From Pseudomonadota bacterium (lineage in GTDB: Bacteria > Pseudomonadota > Alphaproteobacteria > RF32 > CAG-239): a DNA stretch of 64,000 nt. Below are positions 49,133 through 58,112 of the stretch, piece after piece. The notes below the pieces were generated by a model. It saw nothing but the letters and a program-made list of their open reading frames with translations, was not told where the DNA came from and did no database searches. The translations under genes and the position numbers were made by a program. The stretch spans positions 20,354 to 84,353 of the forward strand of contig CAKJXZ020000024.1 of assembly GCA_918234285.1 (NCBI GenBank), in the 5' to 3' direction. Positions within the stretch are counted from its first letter, which is position 1, and each line of letters begins with the position of its first letter.

Positions 49133-52100
49133 ATGACGGATTTTGCCTTACAAAAAGAAGAACGAGCTCAAACCGCTTCGGCCCAGCAACGCAAAGCTGC
49201 AAATCCGGAAATGTCGGTATGGGTTGAAGCTTCGGCCGGTACCGGTAAAACCAAGGTACTTACCGATCGGGTTTTGCGTTTGTTGTTGAACGGAGTTAAT
49301 CCGATTCGCCTGTTATGTCTTACTTATACCAAAGCCGCCGCGGTTGAGATGTTGTCACGCATTTCGCAAAAGCTGAGCGAATGGGCGGTTAAAGATGAGG
49401 ATAAGTTGGATAAGGATTTGCACAATCTGCTTGAAGAAGAAATTAAATCGGCGGATGATTTGCGTCGCTATCGACAACAAGCCAGAACTCTGTTTGCCAA
49501 GCTGTTGGATACACCCGGCGGCATTAAAGTTCAGACTTTGCACAGTTTCTGCACCGATGTTTTGAAACGTTTTCCGCTCGAAGCCGGTGTTTCGCCGTAT
49601 TTCAGTGTTTTGGAAGATGAAGAAGTGCAAAAGGCTCTAACCCAAATAAAAGCGGGAATAGCACGAGATGATACCTCGGACAACGCTTTATTTGCGGCGG
49701 CTCGGGAGTATTTGATAAATAATGCGACGGAAAATACCTTCGGCAGTACGATACAGAAAATTATCGGCAATCGTCGGCAAATGGTAAAAATTATGGAAAA
49801 TCACGGCGGATTGGATGGTTTTTTGGCGGCGCTTTCCGCTCGGCTCGAGATTAAGGACAATGATACGCAGGAAAGTTTGAAAACGGAATTTATGGATGCG
49901 GTCCGGGTGCGAATTGATGAAATAAAAGCCATTATTGAAGCCTGGAAACACGGCTCTCCGTCTGATGTATCCAAGGCCGATAAATTACAAAAGATATTGG
50001 AGCGCGGTTTCATTCGGCAAGATTATGATGACTATAAAAGTTGCTACTTTGCTAAAACCACAAACACCTTGAATCAGGGTAAAAATTTAGCTACCAACGG
50101 TGCCAAAAATTTTGACCATTTGCTGTTGGACAGACTGAATTTTGAAGGTGATTTATTGCAGCAAACCGAACAAAAATTACTACGCCAAAAGTTGTACCAA
50201 TCCACCAAAGCCGCGTTTATCTTGGCAGAAGAAATCAATCGCCGTTATGAAAAATATAAGCAAGAGCAATCGTGCATGGACTTTGATGATTTGATTTTTC
50301 ATACGCGTAACCTGTTAGAAAATTCGAGCTCGCGACAATGGGTGTTGTATAAGCTGGACGGGGGTATAGACCACATTTTGTTGGATGAAGCGCAAGATAC
50401 ATCGCCGGAACAATGGGACATCATCGCCCGCCTGAGTGAAGATTTTTTCAGCGGCGACGGACAAAGCAATGTCAATCGTACGTTGTTTGTGGTTGGCGAC
50501 CGTAAGCAATCGATTTTCAGTTTTCAGGGAGCAGATCCCGATAAATTTGATAAAATGGCACGGGATTTCAAGGATAAAGCCGAGAAAGCGCAGAAGCCTT
50601 TTGAAAAAGTTGATTTGGACATCTCCTTCCGTTCTGCACCGGCAATTATGGATTCGGTCAATAAAATATTTGCCACCGACAAAGCCGCCGACGGCGTGGT
50701 TATAGAAAACCGAAAAGTTGAGCATAAACCATATCGTGTCGGGCAATTTGCCAAGGTGACGATTATGCCGCTGATGGAGCCGGAAGAAAGTGAAAAGGTT
50801 CACAATGAAGATGAGTATATGCACACACCGATGGAACGGGTGTATAAAACCGCATTGGTTACCAAAATGGCAGAAGCTACCGCACACCGGATTCGGCAAC
50901 TGATTGATGCTCGTGCCCAAACCGATAAGCCGTTGCATTATCGCGATATTATGGTTTTGGTGCGTACCCGCAACGATTTTGTAGAAGAATTTATCCGTGC
51001 TTGCGAAAAAGAAAATGTGGCGGTTTCCGGTGCCGATAAAATGGTGCTTTCCGAACAAATCGCCATTCAGGATTTAGTTTCGCTCGGTAAATTTTTATTA
51101 TTTCCGCAGGATAATCTGTCTTTGGCCGAAGTTCTGACCTCGCCGCTGTTTTCCATCAATGGAGAATTGTTGGAAGATTTATGTTACGGCCGTCAAAAAA
51201 ACGAAACGCTGTGGGACAGAATGGGGCATGAGCCGCGTTGTGCCGAAATTTACAGCCAGTTGGTAACGTTGCTCAATAATTTGGATTATATTCGCCCGTT
51301 CGAACTGTTCAATTTCGTGCTCTCAAAAATGGAAGGACGCCGCAAGTTTATTTCGCGTATGGGACAAGAAGTCGAAGATGCATTGGATGAATTTTTGAAT
51401 TTGTCATTAGATTATGAGCAACATCAAATTCCGAGTTTGCAAGGATTTATCTCTTGGTTTGAACAAAGCAATCGCGTCATCAAGCGCGAGAGTGATGATC
51501 AGGAAACCGATGCGGTGCGATTGTTTACCGTACACCATTCCAAAGGTTTGCAGGCGCCGATAGTCTTTTTGCCCGATACCGGAACCGTTCCGAAAAATGC
51601 CAAAGAAAATGCCTTTTTACAAGATAACGAGCTCGGGTATTATCCGTTGAACGCAAGTTATTACGATGAATACTGCACCGCTCTCAATCAGAAAAAAGCG
51701 CTCAAATCCGCTCAGGAATATCATCGTTTATTGTATGTTGCTTTGACCCGTGCCGAAGATGAACTTTATATCGGAGCTTACGGGAGTCGCAATGCCGATT
51801 CCTGGTATGAATTATGCCGCAGGGCTTTTGATGTTGACGATGTTAAGAGAGATGTTGAGATTGAAGAGATTTCGCAGGAGTTTGTGGCAAAAGAGCAAAA
51901 GAAAAAGAACGTTCTGACAATGGGAGAATTTGCTTTTGAACCATGGATAGCGGCAAATCTGGAGCCGGAAAAAGCGTTGGCCAAACCGTATACACCGTCC
52001 AAGGAAGATACGGATGAAGAACCGGATTCGGCTTCTCCGTTGGCCGATAATAAAAAATTTTACCGCCGCGGTACACTGATTCATCGCTTATTGCAATTTT

Positions 52101-52519
52101 TACCGCATAATGCCGGCAATCAGGAAGAGGCCGTCGATATTTATTTGCAAAAGTATGCTACCGACTTTTCCGCTGCAGAATGTCAGCAGATAAAATCGGA
52201 AGTTATTCATCTGATAAATAATCCGGAATTTGCCGAAATTTTCGGCCCGTGTTCCAGAGCCGAGGTGCCGATAATGGGCGCGGTTGCCGACAAAATCATC
52301 TCGGCGCAGATTGACCGCTTGGTAGTGTTGCCGGATAAAATTATGATTGTTGACTTCAAAACCAATCGACCGGCCTGTAAAAGCGTTGAGCAAACACCGA
52401 GTGTGTATCTCAATCAGCTCAATACGTATGCCGAACTGGCAGCGCGCATCTATCCGCATAAACCGATTGAAACTTATATTTTATGGACCAACGAAACGCG
52501 GTTAATGCGAGTTGCGTAA
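49133..52519 (+). CDS. addA: Double-strand break repair helicase/nuclease AddA
   Basis: ASAGTGKT, LDEAQDT, VGDRKQSIFSF, SKGLQAP, YVALTRA, IDRL..VDFKT. Confidence 0.95.
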   Translation: MTDFALQKEERAQTASAQQRKAANPEMSVWVEASAGTGKTKVLTDRVLRLLLNGVNPIRLLCLTYTKAAAVEMLSRISQKLSEWAVKDEDKLDKDLHNLLEEEIKSADDLRRYRQQARTLFAKLLDTPGGIKVQTLHSFCTDVLKRFPLEAGVSPYFSVLEDEEVQKALTQIKAGIARDDTSDNALFAAAREYLINNATENTFGSTIQKIIGNRRQMVKIMENHGGLDGFLAALSARLEIKDNDTQESLKTEFMDAVRVRIDEIKAIIEAWKHGSPSDVSKADKLQKILERGFIRQDYDDYKSCYFAKTTNTLNQGKNLATNGAKNFDHLLLDRLNFEGDLLQQTEQKLLRQKLYQSTKAAFILAEEINRRYEKYKQEQSCMDFDDLIFHTRNLLENSSSRQWVLYKLDGGIDHILLDEAQDTSPEQWDIIARLSEDFFSGDGQSNVNRTLFVVGDRKQSIFSFQGADPDKFDKMARDFKDKAEKAQKPFEKVDLDISFRSAPAIMDSVNKIFATDKAADGVVIENRKVEHKPYRVGQFAKVTIMPLMEPEESEKVHNEDEYMHTPMERVYKTALVTKMAEATAHRIRQLIDARAQTDKPLHYRDIMVLVRTRNDFVEEFIRACEKENVAVSGADKMVLSEQIAIQDLVSLGKFLLFPQDNLSLAEVLTSPLFSINGELLEDLCYGRQKNETLWDRMGHEPRCAEIYSQLVTLLNNLDYIRPFELFNFVLSKMEGRRKFISRMGQEVEDALDEFLNLSLDYEQHQIPSLQGFISWFEQSNRVIKRESDDQETDAVRLFTVHHSKGLQAPIVFLPDTGTVPKNAKENAFLQDNELGYYPLNASYYDEYCTALNQKKALKSAQEYHRLLYVALTRAEDELYIGAYGSRNADSWYELCRRAFDVDDVKRDVEIEEISQEFVAKEQKKKNVLTMGEFAFEPWIAANLEPEKALAKPYTPSKEDTDEEPDSASPLADNKKFYRRGTLIHRLLQFLPHNAGNQEEAVDIYLQKYATDFSAAECQQIKSEVIHLINNPEFAEIFGPCSRAEVPIMGAVADKIISAQIDRLVVLPDKIMIVDFKTNRPACKSVEQTPSVYLNQLNTYAELAARIYPHKPIETYILWTNETRLMRVA

Positions 52520-52607
52520 AAAAAGTGTTGTAATTATTTTGTTTATCTTTAATATGAATACAAACAGAATATATTTACGGCACAATTAATAACATGAGGA
52601 GAAAAAT

Positions 52608-52925
52608 ATGACGCAACCTTTAACAGACAGCCAGTTCGGCGAGAACGTATTAAATGCCAAAGGCTTGGTATTGGTGGATTTTTGGGCGGAATGGTGCGGA
52701 CCTTGCCGTCAGCTCGGACCGATTTTGGAAGCAATTGATAATGAAATCGGTAGTGATGTGAAAATCTATAAGATGAACGTTGACGATTCGCCGGCGATTG
52801 CCGGACAGCTCGGGATTCGCAGTATTCCGACCATGTATCTGTTTAAGGACGGAAAACAGGTTGATTTTAAAGTTGGCCTGAATACGCAATCCACTATTCA
52901 GGATTGGATTCAATCATATAAATAA
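52608..52925 (+). CDS. trxA: Thioredoxin
   Basis: DFWAEWCGPC, SIPT. Confidence 0.97.
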   Translation: MTQPLTDSQFGENVLNAKGLVLVDFWAEWCGPCRQLGPILEAIDNEIGSDVKIYKMNVDDSPAIAGQLGIRSIPTMYLFKDGKQVDFKVGLNTQSTIQDWIQSYK

Positions 52926-52950
52926 AATTACTTCGTTGAAGATAATCAAG

Positions 52951-52977
52951 AACCGTGCAAAGTCGCACGGTTTTTTT
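52951..52977 (+). terminator. Terminator after trxA
   Basis: AACCGTGC-aaagtc-GCACGGTT followed by T tract. Confidence 0.8.
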
Positions 52978-53014
52978 ATTGTACATATATTGCCGTAAGT
53001 GTAACCGCTACTTT

Positions 53015-53425
53015 TTATCCTTCGCGCTCGCCCGGCTTAAATTTCTTTTTGAACGCGGCGTATCCGGACTTAAGATTTTCACTCCGTTTTTTATCTGCCT
53101 CATCTTTATTCTGATTATTCCTTTTTGCAAGAATTCGATTAACACATATCTCGCTTTTATAGGCTGTACTTTTAATCAAATCTTTGTAGTAAATACCGCC
53201 ATTTTTTGATTTAGGGCAATCATATTTTTCGTTTAACTCATTATTGCATAATATTTTCTCATTTTCCGGCATCTCAGGCAATCCGAACAAAGAGGATAAA
53301 TCCGGATTATAGTAGCAATAAAAACCTTCACCGATTTTTTGCGGCGCACCTTCTAAGGAAGTCAGTTGATTGCTGCCGCAATTATATTTATGTCTAACAA
53401 TAGCATAAAATGCCGCAAAACGCAA
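53015..53425 (-). pseudogene. Probable 3' remnant of a leucine-rich-repeat protein gene
   Basis: CGSNQLTSLEGAPQKIGEGFYCYYNPDLSSLFGLP is an LRR unit starting almost at the ORF start; only a TTG start. Confidence 0.5.
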
Positions 53426-53465
53426 CAGAATTTTACGGGATTTTCCTTATTCCTAATGCCGATTT

Positions 53466-53573
53466 TCAATCAATATAGCGGTAAATCGCCTGCATGGCCG
53501 GCGACGGTTGTCCGGTTTGATTTGTCCCTTCCGTCGGAGTTTGCCCCGTCGGTTGTGCCGGTGAAGGTGCAAG
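53466..53573 (-). pseudogene. Start-less Q/P/T-rich linker fragment (LAPSPAQPTGQTPTEGTNQTGQPSPAMQAIYRYID*)
   Basis: GC-richer patch read manually, begins directly after the TAA of the upstream gene. Confidence 0.4.
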
Positions 53574-53996
53574 TTAATCTACCAAAAACCGAGGATTTTT
53601 TCTGACCCACGCAATTACCAAAGAAATACCGATGCAAATCCAGCTTATAGGATAATCATTCCATAACTTTTCGCCTAAATATCGGGTATTTTCATTTAGA
53701 GATATAAAATAAACAATTCCGCAAATTATGTAAGCGTAAAATATCCATCCGACAGATTTAACATAATATGCAACATCTGGATAATCAGTAAAAAATCTGT
53801 TTAGAAGCTTAACTCCGAAAATTATCGCAACAAACAAATATAACAAAAAAATTACAACGAAAAACACCATAAAAGGAATAACATTACAAAAAACGGAATG
53901 ATGATAACAATATGAATCGATACCTGATAAGACTTCAAATACGGCTAACATTAACGCACCGACAAAGAGCAATTCATTAACTATGTTATTCATCAT
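53574..53996 (-). CDS. 4-TM membrane protein, putative immunity protein
   Basis: Four hydrophobic segments, very AT-rich, SD GAGGAG, directly after the orphan cassette. Confidence 0.65.
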   Translation of the reverse strand: MMNNIVNELLFVGALMLAVFEVLSGIDSYCYHHSVFCNVIPFMVFFVVIFLLYLFVAIIFGVKLLNRFFTDYPDVAYYVKSVGWIFYAYIICGIVYFISLNENTRYLGEKLWNDYPISWICIGISLVIAWVRKNPRFLVD

Positions 53997-54028
53997 TCCG
54001 TCTCCTCTTACCTAATCATAATTGAAAA

Positions 54029-54684
54029 CTATTTATTTTGCAACGGCAAAAGTTCTTCATCACTGAATACCCGTTTATTACGATAACTTTCGCGATAAGC
54101 CCTCGTAAGATTATCATAATAGCCGGCTCCCATATATCCGTATTTATATGCGTTTAATGCTAAAGCTGCATAAGGCATATATTGCGCAATAAATTTCATT
54201 ACAACGGCATCTGTTATGTTATTTCCTGTTGAAATAGGATTAGCCATAGGATGCTCCTGATTTATTTTTAAGAAATTATTATATACTGACTTTATGTTTC
54301 CCCCGCGGTCATATGGTTCCGGCACTGCCCACGCATAATTTTTATCATCTCGAATATTATATTCGTTGTTATAATCAGTGCTCTGCATTTCACTGGAAAG
54401 AACTGCTTGATTGTTTATAATATTTTCTCCCCATTTAGCATAATCAACTTGCCCCGGTGAAGAAGTGTTTTGTTGATTATGATATATGACAGGTGTCGGC
54501 TGGTTTTGTTTTTGCCATACATACATATTTTCAGAGACATAACTCGGCTGCTGCCAAGTGGGCACTTGCCCGGCTGATTGAACCTGTGTTTCCGGTTGTT
54601 GCGTTGATACTTGTGTCTGTACTGCTGGTGGCGGAGTGTTGCCGTAGAGCTGTTTATAGTTATAATCGTCGTGTTCGTATAAAT
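54029..54684 (-). pseudogene. Orphan toxin-like C-terminal cassette lacking the N-terminal start
   Basis: Frame open from RDLYEHDDYNYKQLYGNTPPPAVQ through the listed 54029..54565 ORF; an in-frame TAA precedes it and no ATG precedes the homology block. Confidence 0.6.
54591..54684. repeat. 94-bp direct repeat, copy 1
   Basis: Identical to 56175..56268 except one base (gcgTtg vs gcgCtg). Confidence 0.95.
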
Positions 54685-54711
54685 CACGTTAGAAATGTAA
54701 TATCTATCCCA

Positions 54712-55440
54712 TTAGTAGCAACGCTCGTTTTTCCAAATTCCTTTGCATTGTAAGCATGCTTTTTCAGATAATTTTTGTTTATCTTGAGGACAAGGATAAC
54801 TTAAAACATCATCTTTTCCAAAATAGCGTTGTCCATGGCACACTATACCTTGACGATTGTATTTCGCTCCTAAGATTTTTTCTTGATTAAAACTTAAATC
54901 TATCGGGGTTGGCTCATCACAACTCCAACAGGCAAAAAATCTATCCATCAGTGGCCGCTCCGGAGGACACTTTAACACACTTATAGCTGTTGTCGGTGAT
55001 GTGTATTGTAATACCCTGTTTGGGCAACGGTATAAACACTCATCTTTTTGTTCGCACTTAGGATCCATCCAAACTGGAGTTATTGTATTGCAGGGATAGC
55101 AACTATCATTATGAATGCCATAAAAATATCCTTCTTTTCTTTCACAGTTTTCTAACGAAACTTGTTCATGATTGGTATGAAACGAATAGAAGTTACCATC
55201 ACTCGTATCGTTAAGTTCGCATGAGTTAAAGTATTCTCCTTCAAAGTAAAATCTGTTTGGACAATGTTGAACACAATTTTCTTTTGTACCCAATTCTAAT
55301 GTATAGGGTGTATCGCAATTGAAGCACGTTCCGGAAATGAGAAATACACAATCCTTAGGAGTTTGGGCACAGGCTGCATTGCAGCCCATGCTCAAACAAA
55401 TAATACCGATAAATTGTATAAGGTTACTTTTTAATACCAC
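54712..55440 (-). CDS. Secreted Cys-rich protein, putative lysozyme immunity protein
   Basis: N-terminal hydrophobic signal, many Cys in repeated CxxC...CPNR units; overlaps the 3' end of the lysozyme gene by 17 nt. Confidence 0.65.
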   Translation of the reverse strand: MVLKSNLIQFIGIICLSMGCNAACAQTPKDCVFLISGTCFNCDTPYTLELGTKENCVQHCPNRFYFEGEYFNSCELNDTSDGNFYSFHTNHEQVSLENCERKEGYFYGIHNDSCYPCNTITPVWMDPKCEQKDECLYRCPNRVLQYTSPTTAISVLKCPPERPLMDRFFACWSCDEPTPIDLSFNQEKILGAKYNRQGIVCHGQRYFGKDDVLSYPCPQDKQKLSEKACLQCKGIWKNERCY

Positions 55441-56452
55441 TTTTACAGTGCTCCATTTTCATTTTATCCGTATCCAATCCTGGATACATTCTATCCACGG
55501 TTTGTTTATTGCGATCAAATCCTACACCGCAACGCCATGCCTCATTTGCTGCTTGCTTCCAGTTATTTTGCAAAATGGCATCACGCATATTGGTATATTT
55601 AGAAAAACGTGGAGTTCCAAGTCCATACGCCATATCCATCAATGCTTTCTGCCTGTTTTCGGTATAAACAGGAAAATCAGGATATTTATCCGTAACATAG
55701 TTATATCCGTCTACATATTTCTCTTTCATAATACGATCATTTTCTTCGGGTGCAATACGCATATTGGATTTATCCGCATAATATGTATATAATTTCCCAT
55801 ATTCGCCGCTCTTCAGTTTTTTTATTTCTTCCTCTAATTCTTCTTCACTTAAAGGTTTACCTGTTAGCGCGTGATATAATTGAATATTTGGAGTTTGATC
55901 AACATTAATTCCGCAACCTATTGTAGTATTCGGCGGAGTAGCCGTATCCAAATATGCATACGGCACAAAACCTCCTTCATTAAAACATAAATCATCTTTA
56001 TCACGGCTAAAATAATAGTTTACATCACGATTATTCGATGTAATTTGTGAGGACACGTTGTTTTTTAAATTATTGTTGGATTCGTTATTGTCAATATTAA
56101 AGTTAGAAGGTGTGTTATTGTTATTTTGAAAATAACTGCTCGGCTGTCCAAGCGTGGCATTGGCAGTATTATTCTCCGGTTGTTGCGCTGATACTTGTGT
56201 CTGTACTGCTGGTGGCGGAGTGTTGCCGTAGAGCTGTTTATAGTTATAATCGTCGTGTTCGTATAAATAATTCTGTATTTCGTCGGCAAACGGGTTCGGC
56301 GAGTTCTCACTCGGCACGGGAATTTCCTTCATCTCAGCAAAAGTTCTTGCTCCGCGCGGATCCAAATAATAATATTCGTCTTGCCCTGTTTGCGGATTTA
56401 TTCGGTGTACCGTACGTTTCCCGAATATTCTTTCTCGATTTAAATAATCCAT
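55424..56452 (-). CDS. Modular protein: unknown N-domain, Q/N-rich linker, C-terminal T4-lysozyme-like (GH24-like) muramidase
   Basis: NEGG...AYLDT...TTIGCG (Glu-Asp-Thr triad), RQKALMDMAYGLG, NWKQAANE; start set at MDYLNR. Confidence 0.75.
   Translation of the reverse strand: MDYLNRERIFGKRTVHRINPQTGQDEYYYLDPRGARTFAEMKEIPVPSENSPNPFADEIQNYLYEHDDYNYKQLYGNTPPPAVQTQVSAQQPENNTANATLGQPSSYFQNNNNTPSNFNIDNNESNNNLKNNVSSQITSNNRDVNYYFSRDKDDLCFNEGGFVPYAYLDTATPPNTTIGCGINVDQTPNIQLYHALTGKPLSEEELEEEIKKLKSGEYGKLYTYYADKSNMRIAPEENDRIMKEKYVDGYNYVTDKYPDFPVYTENRQKALMDMAYGLGTPRFSKYTNMRDAILQNNWKQAANEAWRCGVGFDRNKQTVDRMYPGLDTDKMKMEHCKSGIKK
56175..56268. repeat. 94-bp direct repeat, copy 2
   Basis: Encodes LYEHDDYNYKQLYGNTPPPAVQTQVSAQQP in the full-length gene. 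Confidence 0.95.
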
Positions 56453-56513
56453 CTTGTTTTTCAAAATGCGAAAACCGCACGTCATAAAACGCACGGTTTT
56501 CAAGTATTAATAC

Positions 56514-56544
56514 AAAAAAAGAACGCAGACTAAAAATTGCGTTC
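56514..56544 (-). terminator. Intrinsic terminator in the leader of the lysozyme-domain gene
   Basis: Minus strand GAACGCA-atttttagtc-TGCGTTC-TTTTTTT. Confidence 0.65.
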
Positions 56545-56587
56545 GACCTTAGATAACGAATTCACCCACGAATCCATTATGGTAATT

Positions 56588-56616
56588 TTTGTAGCACACA
56601 AGTCACTAAATGTCAA
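56588..56616 (-). promoter_or_regulatory. Sigma-70-like promoter
   Basis: Minus strand TTGACA-17 nt-TACAAA with extended TG. Confidence 0.55.
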
Positions 56617-56660
56617 GTATTTTCTTATTTATAATAATAAAAATATTATCAGAATCGCAT

Positions 56661-56690
56661 AAAAAAAGAGGCCGGAGCCTCTCTTTTTTT
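56661..56690 (-). terminator. Terminator after pfk
   Basis: AAAAAAAGAGGC-cgga-GCCTCTCTTTTTTT. Confidence 0.7.
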
Positions 56691-57769
56691 TATTCTTCGC
56701 CAACATACATTCCGATATTGTGCGCGGCTTTTACATACGGACTGTTCGCATCCAAACCGGTAGTACCGGCCGCCACAACCTCCTCCAAAGCAAACGAGGT
56801 AACTTTGCCACCGGAAAGCGCCACCATTCTGTCAGTGTGTCCCTCAGAGAGCAGACGCACCGCTTCCGAACCGAGAATCACACCCAAACTGCGGTCAAAC
56901 ATCGTCGGGTTGCCTGAGCGTTGAACGTGCCCGAGTTTAGTAACGCGGGTTTGGAAACCTTTGTAATTGGCATTAATCAGCTTGCTCAGATATTCGCCAA
57001 TACCGCCGTTGATTTTTTCGCCGACCATATTAACAGCATCGGTTACTGCCTCGCCGTTTTCGGTTTTAACCCCTTCTGATACCACAATCAGCGCATGGCG
57101 ACGACCGCTTTTTTTGATTTCTTCCAATTTATTTATAATGCCTTGCAATGTATACGGAATCTCCGGTACCAAGCAAATATCGGCGAATCCGGCAACCGCG
57201 GCGTGTATGGCCAGATGTCCGGCATCACGTCCCATAACTTCCAAAATCAGCGCTCGATGATGCGAACGAGCAGTTAAGAGCAAATCGTCGAGAGCATTGG
57301 TGCAAGCCTGACAAGCTGTGTTGAAACCGACGGAGAACTCGGTCAACGGAGTATCGTTATCAATGGTCTTCGGAATACCGATCATTTTTACTCCGGCCAT
57401 TTTGCAATAGTTGCTGACAATATTCATACTGCCGTCACCACCCACAACCAAAATTGCGTCCAGTCCCAACTCCTTAACACCTTCGCCGAAACGCTTGGCA
57501 ATCACTTCCGGAGCTTCTTTAACGCCGGTATTGAGTGAACCGAGATAAGAACCGGAAAGGCGCGGCCACGGAGAGTTCGAAAAATTCGATTCGGTTAAAA
57601 TTTCATAAGAAAGCGGGCGATTGGTCAAGCCGTCGGTTCCGTCATGGATTCCGTATACTTCCCAACCGAAACGGGTTGCGGCATTGACAACCGAGAAAAT
57701 AACGGCATTCAAGCCGGCACAGTCGCCGCCGCTGGTTAAAATACCTATCTTTTTAATTTTTTTCATCAA
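56690..57769 (-). CDS. pfkA: 6-phosphofructokinase, PfkA family, probably ATP-dependent
   Basis: TSGGDCAGLN, GGDGS, PKTIDND, EVMGRDAG, LGHVQR. Confidence 0.92.
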   Translation of the reverse strand: MMKKIKKIGILTSGGDCAGLNAVIFSVVNAATRFGWEVYGIHDGTDGLTNRPLSYEILTESNFSNSPWPRLSGSYLGSLNTGVKEAPEVIAKRFGEGVKELGLDAILVVGGDGSMNIVSNYCKMAGVKMIGIPKTIDNDTPLTEFSVGFNTACQACTNALDDLLLTARSHHRALILEVMGRDAGHLAIHAAVAGFADICLVPEIPYTLQGIINKLEEIKKSGRRHALIVVSEGVKTENGEAVTDAVNMVGEKINGGIGEYLSKLINANYKGFQTRVTKLGHVQRSGNPTMFDRSLGVILGSEAVRLLSEGHTDRMVALSGGKVTSFALEEVVAAGTTGLDANSPYVKAAHNIGMYVGEE

Positions 57770-57899
57770 CTCTCTCCGTCTTTTTGTAGTTGCATTTATA
57801 CTAAAAATGATGTATACTCTTTACAACTTTGATATAAAATTTCCACAAAAAAAGTAAAGTTTATGACAACTTTATTTTAAAGAAAGGACTAACGACCCT

Positions 57900-58112
57900 A
57901 TGACTATGAACGATAAAACGGCTAAATTACAGCTCTTGCTTTGTGAATTGAAGTTGGAGCAACGCCATGTTAATACGGATATGTCCCGTTTACTCAAACA
58001 AGGAAAAACCATTGATTTTTTTCAGGCGCGCCGTTTAAGCTCTCAAAAAAGCGGATTAGCTAAAAAGATAAATAAAGTGGAATCCAGTATCAATCCGAAT
58101 ATTATTGCATAA
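57900..58112 (+). CDS. YdcH/DUF465-like small coiled-coil protein
   Basis: LKLEQRHV...RRL..K..L..I...P.IIA C-terminus typical of alphaproteobacterial DUF465. Confidence 0.6.
   Translation: MTMNDKTAKLQLLLCELKLEQRHVNTDMSRLLKQGKTIDFFQARRLSSQKSGLAKKINKVESSINPNIIA

Follow-up and report, generated by a model that had tools for sequence, protein, structure and literature searches.

A probable polymorphic toxin island with a small phage-head-related N-domain in a CAG-239 alphaproteobacterium

The island between trxA and pfkA

The 64,000-nucleotide stretch of DNA considered here, hereafter the window, comes from a CAG-239 alphaproteobacterium (assembly GCA_918234285.1, contig CAKJXZ020000024.1) and contains a candidate polymorphic toxin island between trxA and pfkA. 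In the closest relative in the genome collection (G125; enolase 97-99% and pfkA 96.7% identical), this site is empty: blocks of G125 align to window positions 52000-52985 and 56689-58000, with a gap of just 10 nt between them. Because the empty site fixes the limits of the island at 52986-56688, the extent of 53466..56452 given in a first-pass annotation, made from the letters of the DNA without database searches, proved too small, and a truncated leucine-rich repeat (LRR) gene has to be included. The same annotation had described the interval as AT-rich and had suggested comparing it across relatives; its composition (G+C 37.0% against 44.1% in the flanks) and the empty site in G125 both agree with that description, and the comparison shows the island to be, in sequence terms, a recent insertion between trxA and pfkA.

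In minus-strand order, a gene for a protein with 23 Cys, a start-less cassette, a membrane protein gene, a scar and a cut-off LRR gene come after the toxin gene. The elements listed at first pass (full-length gene, Cys-rich gene, start-less frame, membrane gene and a last fragment) are thus all present, with two amendments. The supposed 4-TM gene does encode a membrane protein, but with three clear hydrophobic segments and a possible fourth, and the last 'linker fragment' does hold the end of a linker, but is really a cassette scar that ends in a junction motif. The features are as follows.

52986..56688, no strand: complete insert of 3,703 bp, bounded by the trxA terminator and the stop codon of pfkA; empty site in G125
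56458..56500, minus: hairpin or palindrome, GAAAACCGTGCG-loop-CGTGCGGTTTTC, about 20 nt before the toxin start codon
55424..56452, minus: full-length toxin gene, 342 amino acids, starting MDYLNRER
56213..56452, minus: toxin N-domain, residues 1-80; helix, two short strands, two helices; model confidence (pLDDT, predicted local distance difference test) >90
56036..56212, minus: disordered N/Q/S-rich linker, residues 81-139; the recombination block is its first part
55424..56035, minus: toxin tip 1, residues 140-342; T4-lysozyme-fold, muramidase-like domain
56175..56268, minus: direct repeat copy A, in the full-length gene; 94 nt, 99% identical to 54591-54684
54712..55440, minus: candidate immunity gene 1, secreted 23-Cys protein of 242 amino acids with a hydrophobic leader; overlaps the toxin stop
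54029..54688, minus: orphan cassette, start-less linker and tip 2; a stop-to-stop frame with neither N-domain nor a start codon at its head
54591..54684, minus: direct repeat copy B, at the head of the orphan cassette; translates to LYEHDDYNYKQLYGNTPPPAVQTQVS
53574..53996, minus: candidate immunity gene 2, multi-pass membrane protein
53466..53573, minus: scar of a third cassette, consisting of a linker end, the junction motif GQPSPAMQAIYRY and a stop; the last residues of this short frame are ...GQPSPAMQAIYRYID
53015..53446, minus: truncated LRR-family gene, C-terminal part only, matching the C-terminal third of multi-copy LRR proteins

The architecture of the toxin is well resolved in an AlphaFold model of the whole protein (51-row alignment, mean pLDDT 85.9), in which residues 1-80 and 140-336 exceed 90 while residues 88-136 fall below 50. 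The latter correspond to the Q/N linker seen at first pass (17 N and 6 Q in residues 86-140). The N-domain, previously put at about 60 amino acids, has a folded part of about 80 by the models, with a pLDDT of 88.5 when modelled alone. Because it matches no Pfam family and no known fold (best match in BFVD at E 0.7; best Z 2.7 among 48,161 PDB representatives), it is unrecognised as a carrier, as had been suspected. The lysozyme-like character of tip 1 is borne out by Foldseek, with T4 gp5 and T4 lysozyme as matches in PDB (E 1e-4, target-normalised template modelling score about 0.65, 16-18% identity). The Pfam model Phage_lysozyme is matched at E 3.3e-4 with a score of 21.4, below its cut-off of 22.3. 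The tip keeps NEGG...LDT...TIGCG, in which the Glu-Asp-Thr motif of T4 lysozyme was recognised by eye, and by its fold (Foldseek) and this catalytic motif (by eye) it belongs with the GH24, T4-type lysozymes. A signal peptide and a dedicated secretion marker are absent, and Rhs, PAAR, TPS and MafB domains gave no match at E<=1. On the island as a whole, Rfam returned chance-level matches only (E 0.75-0.8), and a consensus promoter scan likewise stayed at chance level, with 14 promoter-like sites against 15.2 expected.

Exchange of tips and partner genes

With residues 1-95 as the query, a phmmer search of 1.84 billion cluster representatives at E<=1e-3 returned 57 proteins, 41 of them at <=1e-10. 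The match begins within the first 29 residues in all of these save one, an 862-amino-acid repeat protein (E 2.6e-4) that is probably spurious; four matches begin mid-domain, like the orphan cassette of the window. Pfam was scanned with the 32 proteins fetched at a length of at least 170 amino acids. Named tips were found in 12 of them, namely SAA-like (4), GH108 (4), VgrG3-like_C (2), Tlde1 (1) and Pesticin (1). Phage_Mu_F occurs in eight, two of which also have a named tip, and 14 match no Pfam family at all. The single, unchanging C-terminus that the first-pass annotation had named as telling against its own interpretation was therefore not found, since the 32 proteins hold at least five tip families. 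N-domain proteins range from 170 to 490 amino acids, and in an alignment of 29 family members no conserved column was found past the N-domain/MuF region. A word-indexed search with the whole protein gave 75 matches, of which only the first eight share the tip of the window, over 55-70% of the query; there are no functional names among the 75, which are called 'hypothetical protein' and, once, 'DUF2778 domain-containing protein'.

A scan of one genome per species yielded 40 loci with the N-domain. Thirty-five are labelled Alphaproteobacteria, Rhodospirillales or 'Azospirillum', one is just 'Bacterium', and four have other names; because three of these four have flanking genes in common with alphaproteobacterial loci, the otherwise-named loci are probably mis-binned. 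The record titles name deer, goat, yak and cattle (rumen and gut) as sources, together with the human gut. The family is thus almost confined to gut and rumen Alphaproteobacteria. In 22 of the 40 loci (L011-L049; e.g. L014:7444-7911), the gene immediately upstream of the toxin gene has the same orientation and encodes a conserved basic protein of 150-160 amino acids, here called c1, which has nothing significant in Pfam and no usable match in the ESM Atlas, and which may be a regulator or chaperone. The sole c1 copy of the window's own genome (C30:114038-114505(-)) precedes a different small toxin-like gene, adjacent to a serine recombinase and a tRNA-like stretch.

The window's own genome has the N-domain at three more sites. 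On contig C10 it is 70% identical and is followed by a different tip and then a membrane protein; on C50 it is a fragment; and on C3 it stands with a MuF core in a frameshifted copy. The C3 copy (C3:117912-119265(-); L005:330-1683) has a lysozyme-like tip and a frameshift mid-MuF motif, and lies beside a ribosomal protein S4-like gene, not in a prophage. Adjoining the C10 toxin is a divergent gene whose N-terminus resembles, by eye, filamentous haemagglutinin/TpsA (C10:102989-104242(-); L002:2-1255). Two further leaders carry the same linker style and the same tips. The class 2 leader, which starts MINF(K/R)(D/N)ED...TVRQTLERVARE, occurs on C36, C37 and C50, and the class 3 leader, which contains DSYGVDHSGF(T/S)xRDELEY, on C12. 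Outside the island, toxin copies and orphan cassettes lie on C10, C36, C50, C12 and C3, including an array of four cassettes in succession on C36, each headed by the junction motif ...QAIYRYL, with LRR genes after the array.

The orphan cassette of the island begins with the block found at residues 63-88 of the full gene, LYEHDDYNYKQLYGNTPPPAVQTQVS. The internal block that the first-pass annotation had seen in both frames is thus a direct repeat of 94 nt, 99% identical between its copies, which links the full gene with the cassette; for 3.8 kb of sequence this greatly exceeds what chance would give. Tip 2 has no match in Pfam and no sequence match in PDB, and shares 53% identity (E 7e-66) with the tip of the full-length class-3 toxin on C12. 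Similarly, the class-1 tip on C10 shares 52% identity (E 1e-34) with a class-3 toxin tip in another genome (G025), and the membrane proteins that follow these two tips are 32% identical (E 9e-17). A tip 74% identical to tip 1, with a Cys-rich gene directly after it and without the N-domain, is found on an independent 1.1-kb metagenome contig (L098), the one short contig that a metagenome scan for tip 1 gave. The membrane protein of the island has weak similarity (E 2.6e-4) to those encoded after related tips. In a related metagenome-assembled genome (MAG; locus L010), the N-domain region is 87% and the membrane protein 97.9% identical to those of the window, and another tip with another partner gene lies between the two, such that this nearly identical membrane protein has a different neighbouring tip. 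The gene orders at these loci show tip and downstream gene travelling together, even behind other leader types, and the downstream genes would be the corresponding immunity genes.

Taken together, three features of polymorphic toxin systems in the sense of Zhang et al. (2012) are present: the C-termini vary, the partner changes with the tip, and stand-alone cassettes share 5' homology. Because one N-domain heads diverse tips, and tip and downstream gene travel together, the island is very probably a real polymorphic toxin/immunity system, of a new carrier family. The first-pass annotation had read the locus in this manner, and the homologues of the first 95 residues do carry diverse C-termini followed by small variable genes.

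The distal end of the island fits the same pattern. Its junction motif, GQPSPAMQAIYRY, stands at the linker/tip junction in seven other frames on C36 and C50, and the LRR proteins that match the island LRR gene also come after the C36 toxin array (one full copy matches LRR_4), which gives the array and the island the same distal end. These proteins belong to a very large LRR family with the repeat GAPQKVGGNFYC.NN.LTSL, whose genes are often in tandem (e.g. C36:6943-9005) and adjoin toxin arrays (also in L010 and L036); the family breaks the assembly at many contig ends (C14, C69, C39, C11, C46, C70 and others).

Pieces of the island occur at 99-100% identity in a bovine-gut sequencing run of another study, and a relative 90-95% alike, with both cassettes present, occurs in a run of a third study. 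No RNA run was listed among those with this sequence. Among the contigs of four sequencing runs, none joins both 94-nt repeats and there is no direct sign of cassette switching, although rare forms can hide in contigs. A contig of run X4 has a joint from 53524 to 56211 in sequence 90-95% alike, with 43 letters on the short side; it is most likely a paralogue of the long-linker gene of the C50 type, and not a deletion at the island locus.

Phage head genes and a podovirus-like element

The first-pass annotation had also excluded MuF as a carrier, and in this it has to be amended, since the eight MuF-bearing homologues have the same N-domain with the Phage_Mu_F match after it. In the family alignment, their N-domain continues into an insertion, IWRT..D.KVR..H..REG...W..PP.GG.PGEDYNCRC, that matches positions 56-111 of the 112-position Phage_Mu_F model, which is its second half. 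The window form runs from ..DYNYK directly into QLYGNTPPP, without the insertion, and may be a derivative that lost the MuF core, if the direction of change is read correctly. MuF-type genes are found at eight of the 40 loci, and in L040, L041 and L042 they lie beside recurring head genes. The PHROGs names of these neighbours are terminase large subunit, GroES-like protein, portal, scaffold, major head protein, two tail proteins, acetyltransferase and a virion structural protein, here called c62. The sole match in a viral collection is a 25.9-kb contig (L099), in which a 343-amino-acid toxin with N-domain and MuF core comes immediately after terminase and ahead of the scaffold and capsid genes, and a secreted protein is encoded on the opposite strand. 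Toxins of other forms are found next to such genes as well: in L030 an N-domain toxin without the MuF core comes after c62, and in the window's own genome a class-2 toxin gene starts right after c62 on C37. That genome has two copies of the head gene set. The C16 copy has a lysin and further phage genes and is, by eye, a genuine prophage; the C37 copy, with pieces on C66 and C71, has the start of the class-2 toxin gene as its last 250 nt. In all likelihood, judging from these sequences, the N-domain has its ancestry in phage head cargo. A complex prediction for the portal (from G057, 7-row alignment) with the N-domain (27-row alignment) scored 0.01 against a mark of 0.32 and carries no weight either way. 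Another prophage of the same genome (C27:9493-30983), with an HK97-type portal, protease, capsid and a tape-measure-sized gene, was ruled out as carrier, as it has no genes in common with the N-domain loci; at its end is a reverse transcriptase that resembles, by eye, the diversity-generating retroelement type.

In three genomes of the window's genus (g1), the head genes form an element of about 15 kb that adjoins mutS-priA in each case (3/3). It comprises repressor-like, GroES-like, portal, fibre, holin-like, cell-wall hydrolase, terminase, scaffold, capsid, tail and acetyltransferase genes, and c62. By BLAST and by eye, no replication or integrase genes were seen in the three elements but one small serine recombinase at the edge in one genome. 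Copies lie at C37:2679-8578 (with the C66 and C71 pieces) and, in other genomes, at G025:C3, G002:C8 and G057:C17 (loci L055-L062). The element is a candidate for domestication in the manner of a gene transfer agent (GTA).

The distribution of the element was followed in a family sample of 151 genomes from 23 genera. The capsid gene is present in 65 of these genomes, mostly as one copy, and in seven genera (g1, 12/12; g21, 11/11; g12, 11/12; g5, 10/12; g23, 9/11; g6, 7/11; g19, 4/11), and the distribution of c62 is nearly the same. The N-domain part of the profile is matched in 34 genomes (match table read by eye) and any part in 45; 32 of the 34 have the capsid gene. Within g6 the N-domain occurs in 5/7 capsid-positive and 0/4 capsid-negative genomes, and within g19 in 3/4 and 0/7, respectively. 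Measured against the C37 copy, capsid identity follows enolase identity: 96% and 99% in G125, 80% and 96% in G145, 76% and 95% in G135, 71-75% and 94% in other g1 genomes, and 62-71% and 84-90% in other genera (enolase 59-67% in four g19 genomes). The Spearman correlation is 0.74 (n=62) and 0.46 without g1 and g19, kin not being independent. The element thus seems, on these identities, to co-diverge with its hosts in seven genera. Enolase is only 59-69% identical to that of the window in g19 (G019, G038, G090, G132) and in G139, G142 and G148, against 84-90% in the rest, which suggests a foreign replacement.

The c62 gene is the last of the element only in the window's genus. Among 13 g1 loci, it is followed by the start of a class-2 toxin in two, a class-3 toxin and membrane protein in one, immunity-like genes only in eight, terminase in one and nothing clear in one. 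In G134 (g23), toxin cassettes come after the lysis genes at the element end. A toxin slot after c62 holds for that genus only and was ruled out as a general feature, as a fibre gene occupies the position in 14 of 17 loci of other genera. In a separate observation, the N-domain toxin of L095 (G144:C2, 8634-10455) is flanked on either side by near-identical 137-amino-acid secreted proteins encoded on the opposite strand; enolase is 1.3 kb away, and the genome has no capsid or c62 match.

Scattered and element-linked toxin genes also have an upstream feature in common. The hairpin before the island toxin gene, with a stem of 13-15 bp and GCATTTT after it, occurs four times in the genome, directly 5' of the full-length gene in each case: before the island toxin gene and before three class-2 toxin genes, one of which is that after c62 on C37. 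Folding energies are -20 to -25.4 kcal/mol (z -3.1 to -5.9), with the window copy at -25.4 (z -5.9), and an alignment of the upstream regions of the toxin genes supports the hairpin. Among the fetched loci it was found only in two from the nearest MAG. The shared hairpin suggests common control of these genes; a terminator scan did not call it, and its reading as an attenuator or operator is by eye.

Delivery of the toxins and comparison with known systems

The best overall explanation of these observations, to which we assign a probability of about 0.5, is that the island is a polymorphic toxin island whose N-domain serves as a particle-loading tag. The toxin would consist of the 80-residue folded N-domain, the disordered N/Q-rich linker and a lysozyme-fold tip that cuts the cell wall of a rival from the periplasm, while its producer would be protected by the secreted Cys-rich protein. 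Together, the start-less cassette and its membrane-protein partner would be a spare pair of tip and immunity gene, and recombination at the 94-nt repeat could put the spare tip behind the N-domain. As a loading tag, the N-domain would place the toxin in or on particles of the podovirus-like element, whose genes lie at another site in the genome; set free by lysis, these particles would eject the toxin into the periplasm of the target as short-tailed phages eject internal proteins. Tips that act on the cell wall, and partners in the periplasm or membrane, would fit such ejection. Particle-borne delivery in present-day cells is the more tentative part of this explanation, and we put it slightly below an even chance. 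That the toxins are the chromosomally encoded cargo of a vertically inherited GTA-like particle of podovirus descent, with at least three interchangeable short leaders as its loading tags, is possible but doubtful.

Several observations weigh against delivery by particles. The island lies outside any prophage, its toxin has no Phage_Mu_F match at E<=1, and no fold neighbour gives a hint of a binding partner for the N-domain. In the window's genus, the slot after c62 holds an immunity-like gene without a toxin at 8 of 13 loci. The N-domain also occurs without a capsid match in G144, which is of high quality (100% complete) and has an N-domain toxin yet no c62 match, and in G001, which is only 87% complete. 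The association of N-domain and element is partly built in, because the element itself encodes MuF-type members, and the counts are confounded by kinship. Finally, every toxin-bearing genome has a type IV secretion system (T4SS).

This last point leads to the strongest alternative, which we nevertheless regard as unlikely, namely that the same toxin system is exported by the chromosomal vir-type T4SS into neighbouring cells. VirB4 is found in the window's own genome, within a T4SS-like cluster, and in 148 of the 151 family genomes, including all those with toxins; as it is single-copy in these 148, the T4SS is therefore ancestral to the family. The L024, L031 and G057 loci have a paralogue of the VirB8 family some 1 kb upstream of the pair of c1 and toxin, and the vir-type T4SS of free-living relatives of Rickettsiales has been proposed as a killer of other bacteria (in excerpts of PMC11077975). 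The vir-type cluster of the window's genome (C17:20739-44000) contains two VirB8-like genes, and its neighbours encode very large proteins (1,411 and 1,789 amino acids). Against export by this route, the conserved part of the toxins is N-terminal and their C-termini are hypervariable, whereas known T4SS signals are C-terminal. A shared C-terminal recognition domain was not found in the 29-member alignment, the Xanthomonas domain itself not having been searched for. Furthermore, the relatives of the N-domain are phage head-module proteins, and the three VirB8-adjacent loci count as one event because their flanking genes are common to all three. A universal T4SS also does not explain the patchy distribution of the toxins, which track the phage-like element instead, although effectors are often patchier than their machine. 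Markers of other injection machines were looked for as well: TssC (VipB) and Hcp of type VI secretion systems (T6SS) and Phage_sheath_1, as expected of the contractile Photorhabdus virulence cassette (PVC) and extracellular contractile injection systems (eCIS), have no match in the window's own genome, which is rated 100% complete.

A still less probable alternative is that the toxins are diffusible bacteriocins, akin to colicin or pesticin, that are released by lysis, perhaps via the holin and hydrolase of the element, and whose N-domain binds an outer-membrane receptor while the linker threads through. The absence of a signal peptide and of a dedicated secretion marker would fit this, as would the layout of folded domain, disordered stretch and T4-lysozyme-fold tip, the match of one family member's tip to the Pesticin model, the periplasmic or membrane partners and the lysis genes within the element. 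However, a receptor-binding domain would not explain why homologues of the N-domain are fused to a MuF core in capsid-assembly modules, and three unrelated short leaders with the same tips are easier to understand as loading tags than as three import routes.

It is very unlikely that the tips are virion-associated cell-wall enzymes that aid particle entry, with the downstream genes as exclusion factors against kin particles. T4 tail lysozyme gp5 is indeed the top structural match, MuF-type members are integral to phage genomes and immunity-like genes persist alone at the element end in 8 of 13 same-genus loci, but the island is outside any phage, arrays of orphan tips exist, Tlde1 and SAA-like tips are not entry enzymes and every tip has its own partner gene. 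Least probable of all is an inert, decaying remnant of a copied toxin array, as the truncated LRR gene, the cassette scar, the orphan without a start and the frameshifted MuF-type copy on C3 might suggest, since the full-length frame is intact with confident models and a kept catalytic motif, and has the same 5' hairpin as three other full-length genes, and pieces of the island recur at 99-100% identity in an independent bovine-gut run.

Among the closest known systems are the MuF toxins. Toxins fused to MuF, and their predicted packaging in phage heads, are described in excerpts of earlier work (Zhang et al., 2012, PMC3482391; Jamet et al., 2017, PMC5576092). In these toxins too, an N-terminal carrier associated with the phage head precedes a variable C-terminal toxin, with a small immunity gene next in line, and the PF04233 core is found in distant members of the N-domain family, whose genes are located in head-gene modules. 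Jamet et al. recognise the MuF family by an N-terminal MuF domain, under PF04233, PF06152 or their MuF3 and MuF4 profiles. Capsid loading is a published but unproven hypothesis for MuF toxins as well; according to excerpts of a 2024 paper on Bxa and Apk2 (PMC11699363), their role is unknown and capsid targeting is a hypothesis. In contrast to MuF toxins, the window protein has no PF04233 match, the 80-residue N-domain is an unclassified module ahead of the MuF core where that core is present, and the island, with its orphan cassettes, lies outside a prophage at the trxA-pfkA site and not in a head module next to portal or terminase. The tips here would attack the cell wall, while the published sets, as far as excerpts of PMC5576092 go, stress nucleases, peptidases, ADP-ribosyltransferases and alarmone synthetases and are mostly from Firmicutes, compared with the alphaproteobacterial hosts here.

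The order of a full gene with its immunity gene, followed by start-less cassettes with 5' homology, is shared with Rhs, CdiA and MafB loci, which differ in that Rhs, PAAR, TPS or MafB domains and a T6SS are not found here and the proteins are only 170-490 amino acids long. Pesticin is a modular bacteriocin with a lysozyme-like killing domain. Like pesticin-type bacteriocins, the island toxin has a putative C-terminal killing domain of T4-lysozyme fold in a modular protein and a partner that would act outside the cytoplasm, but its N-terminal part is unrelated and its family is polymorphic with orphan cassettes. The killing T4SS of Xanthomonas reportedly has cell-wall effectors with periplasmic immunity proteins. 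Predicted cell-wall hydrolases, candidate periplasmic immunity proteins and a T4SS in the genome are likewise present here, whereas the conserved module is N-terminal and there is no family-wide conserved C-terminal domain. Phages target internal proteins to their capsids, as with the internal proteins of T4 and the core proteins of T7. A short N-terminal tag on interchangeable cargo resembles these, and ejected cell-wall-active proteins are a known theme, but most cargo genes here are scattered over the chromosome with immunity genes, and loading is only proposed. Lastly, the element is similar to GTAs, including, from excerpts of its description, the podovirus-like FpGTA of Faecalibacterium (PMC12946183), in being a compact set of head, tail, packaging and lysis genes that is single-copy, sits at one chromosomal site in 3/3 same-genus genomes and has a capsid identity that follows host identity. 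It differs in that related genuine prophages exist, e.g. on C16. In the titles and abstract openings of the papers listed on MuF, polymorphic toxins and GTAs, neither the N-domain nor a toxin linked to an element of this kind in Alphaproteobacteria came up; supplements may list members of the family.

The N-domain family accounts for 'hypothetical proteins' that are widespread in rumen and human-gut Alphaproteobacteria. The mode of action of MuF toxins has been an open question since 2012, and the family provides an unusually clean test case for it, with a carrier of about 80 amino acids, tips amenable to simple periplasmic assays, producers that carry one compact and conserved particle gene set, and some lineages in which the carrier seems to have outlasted the MuF core and its place in a phage. 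Were the N-domain sufficient to load particles, it would be a minimal loading tag, and a domesticated phage particle would serve as a toxin gun. If the universal T4SS exports the toxins, a phage head protein would have been recruited as a secretion signal, which is equally unexpected. Should the toxins instead prove to be the cargo of a GTA-like particle, the whole family would possess not a phage or a GTA but a capsid-borne bacteriocin system, for which the scattered arrays supply the ammunition.

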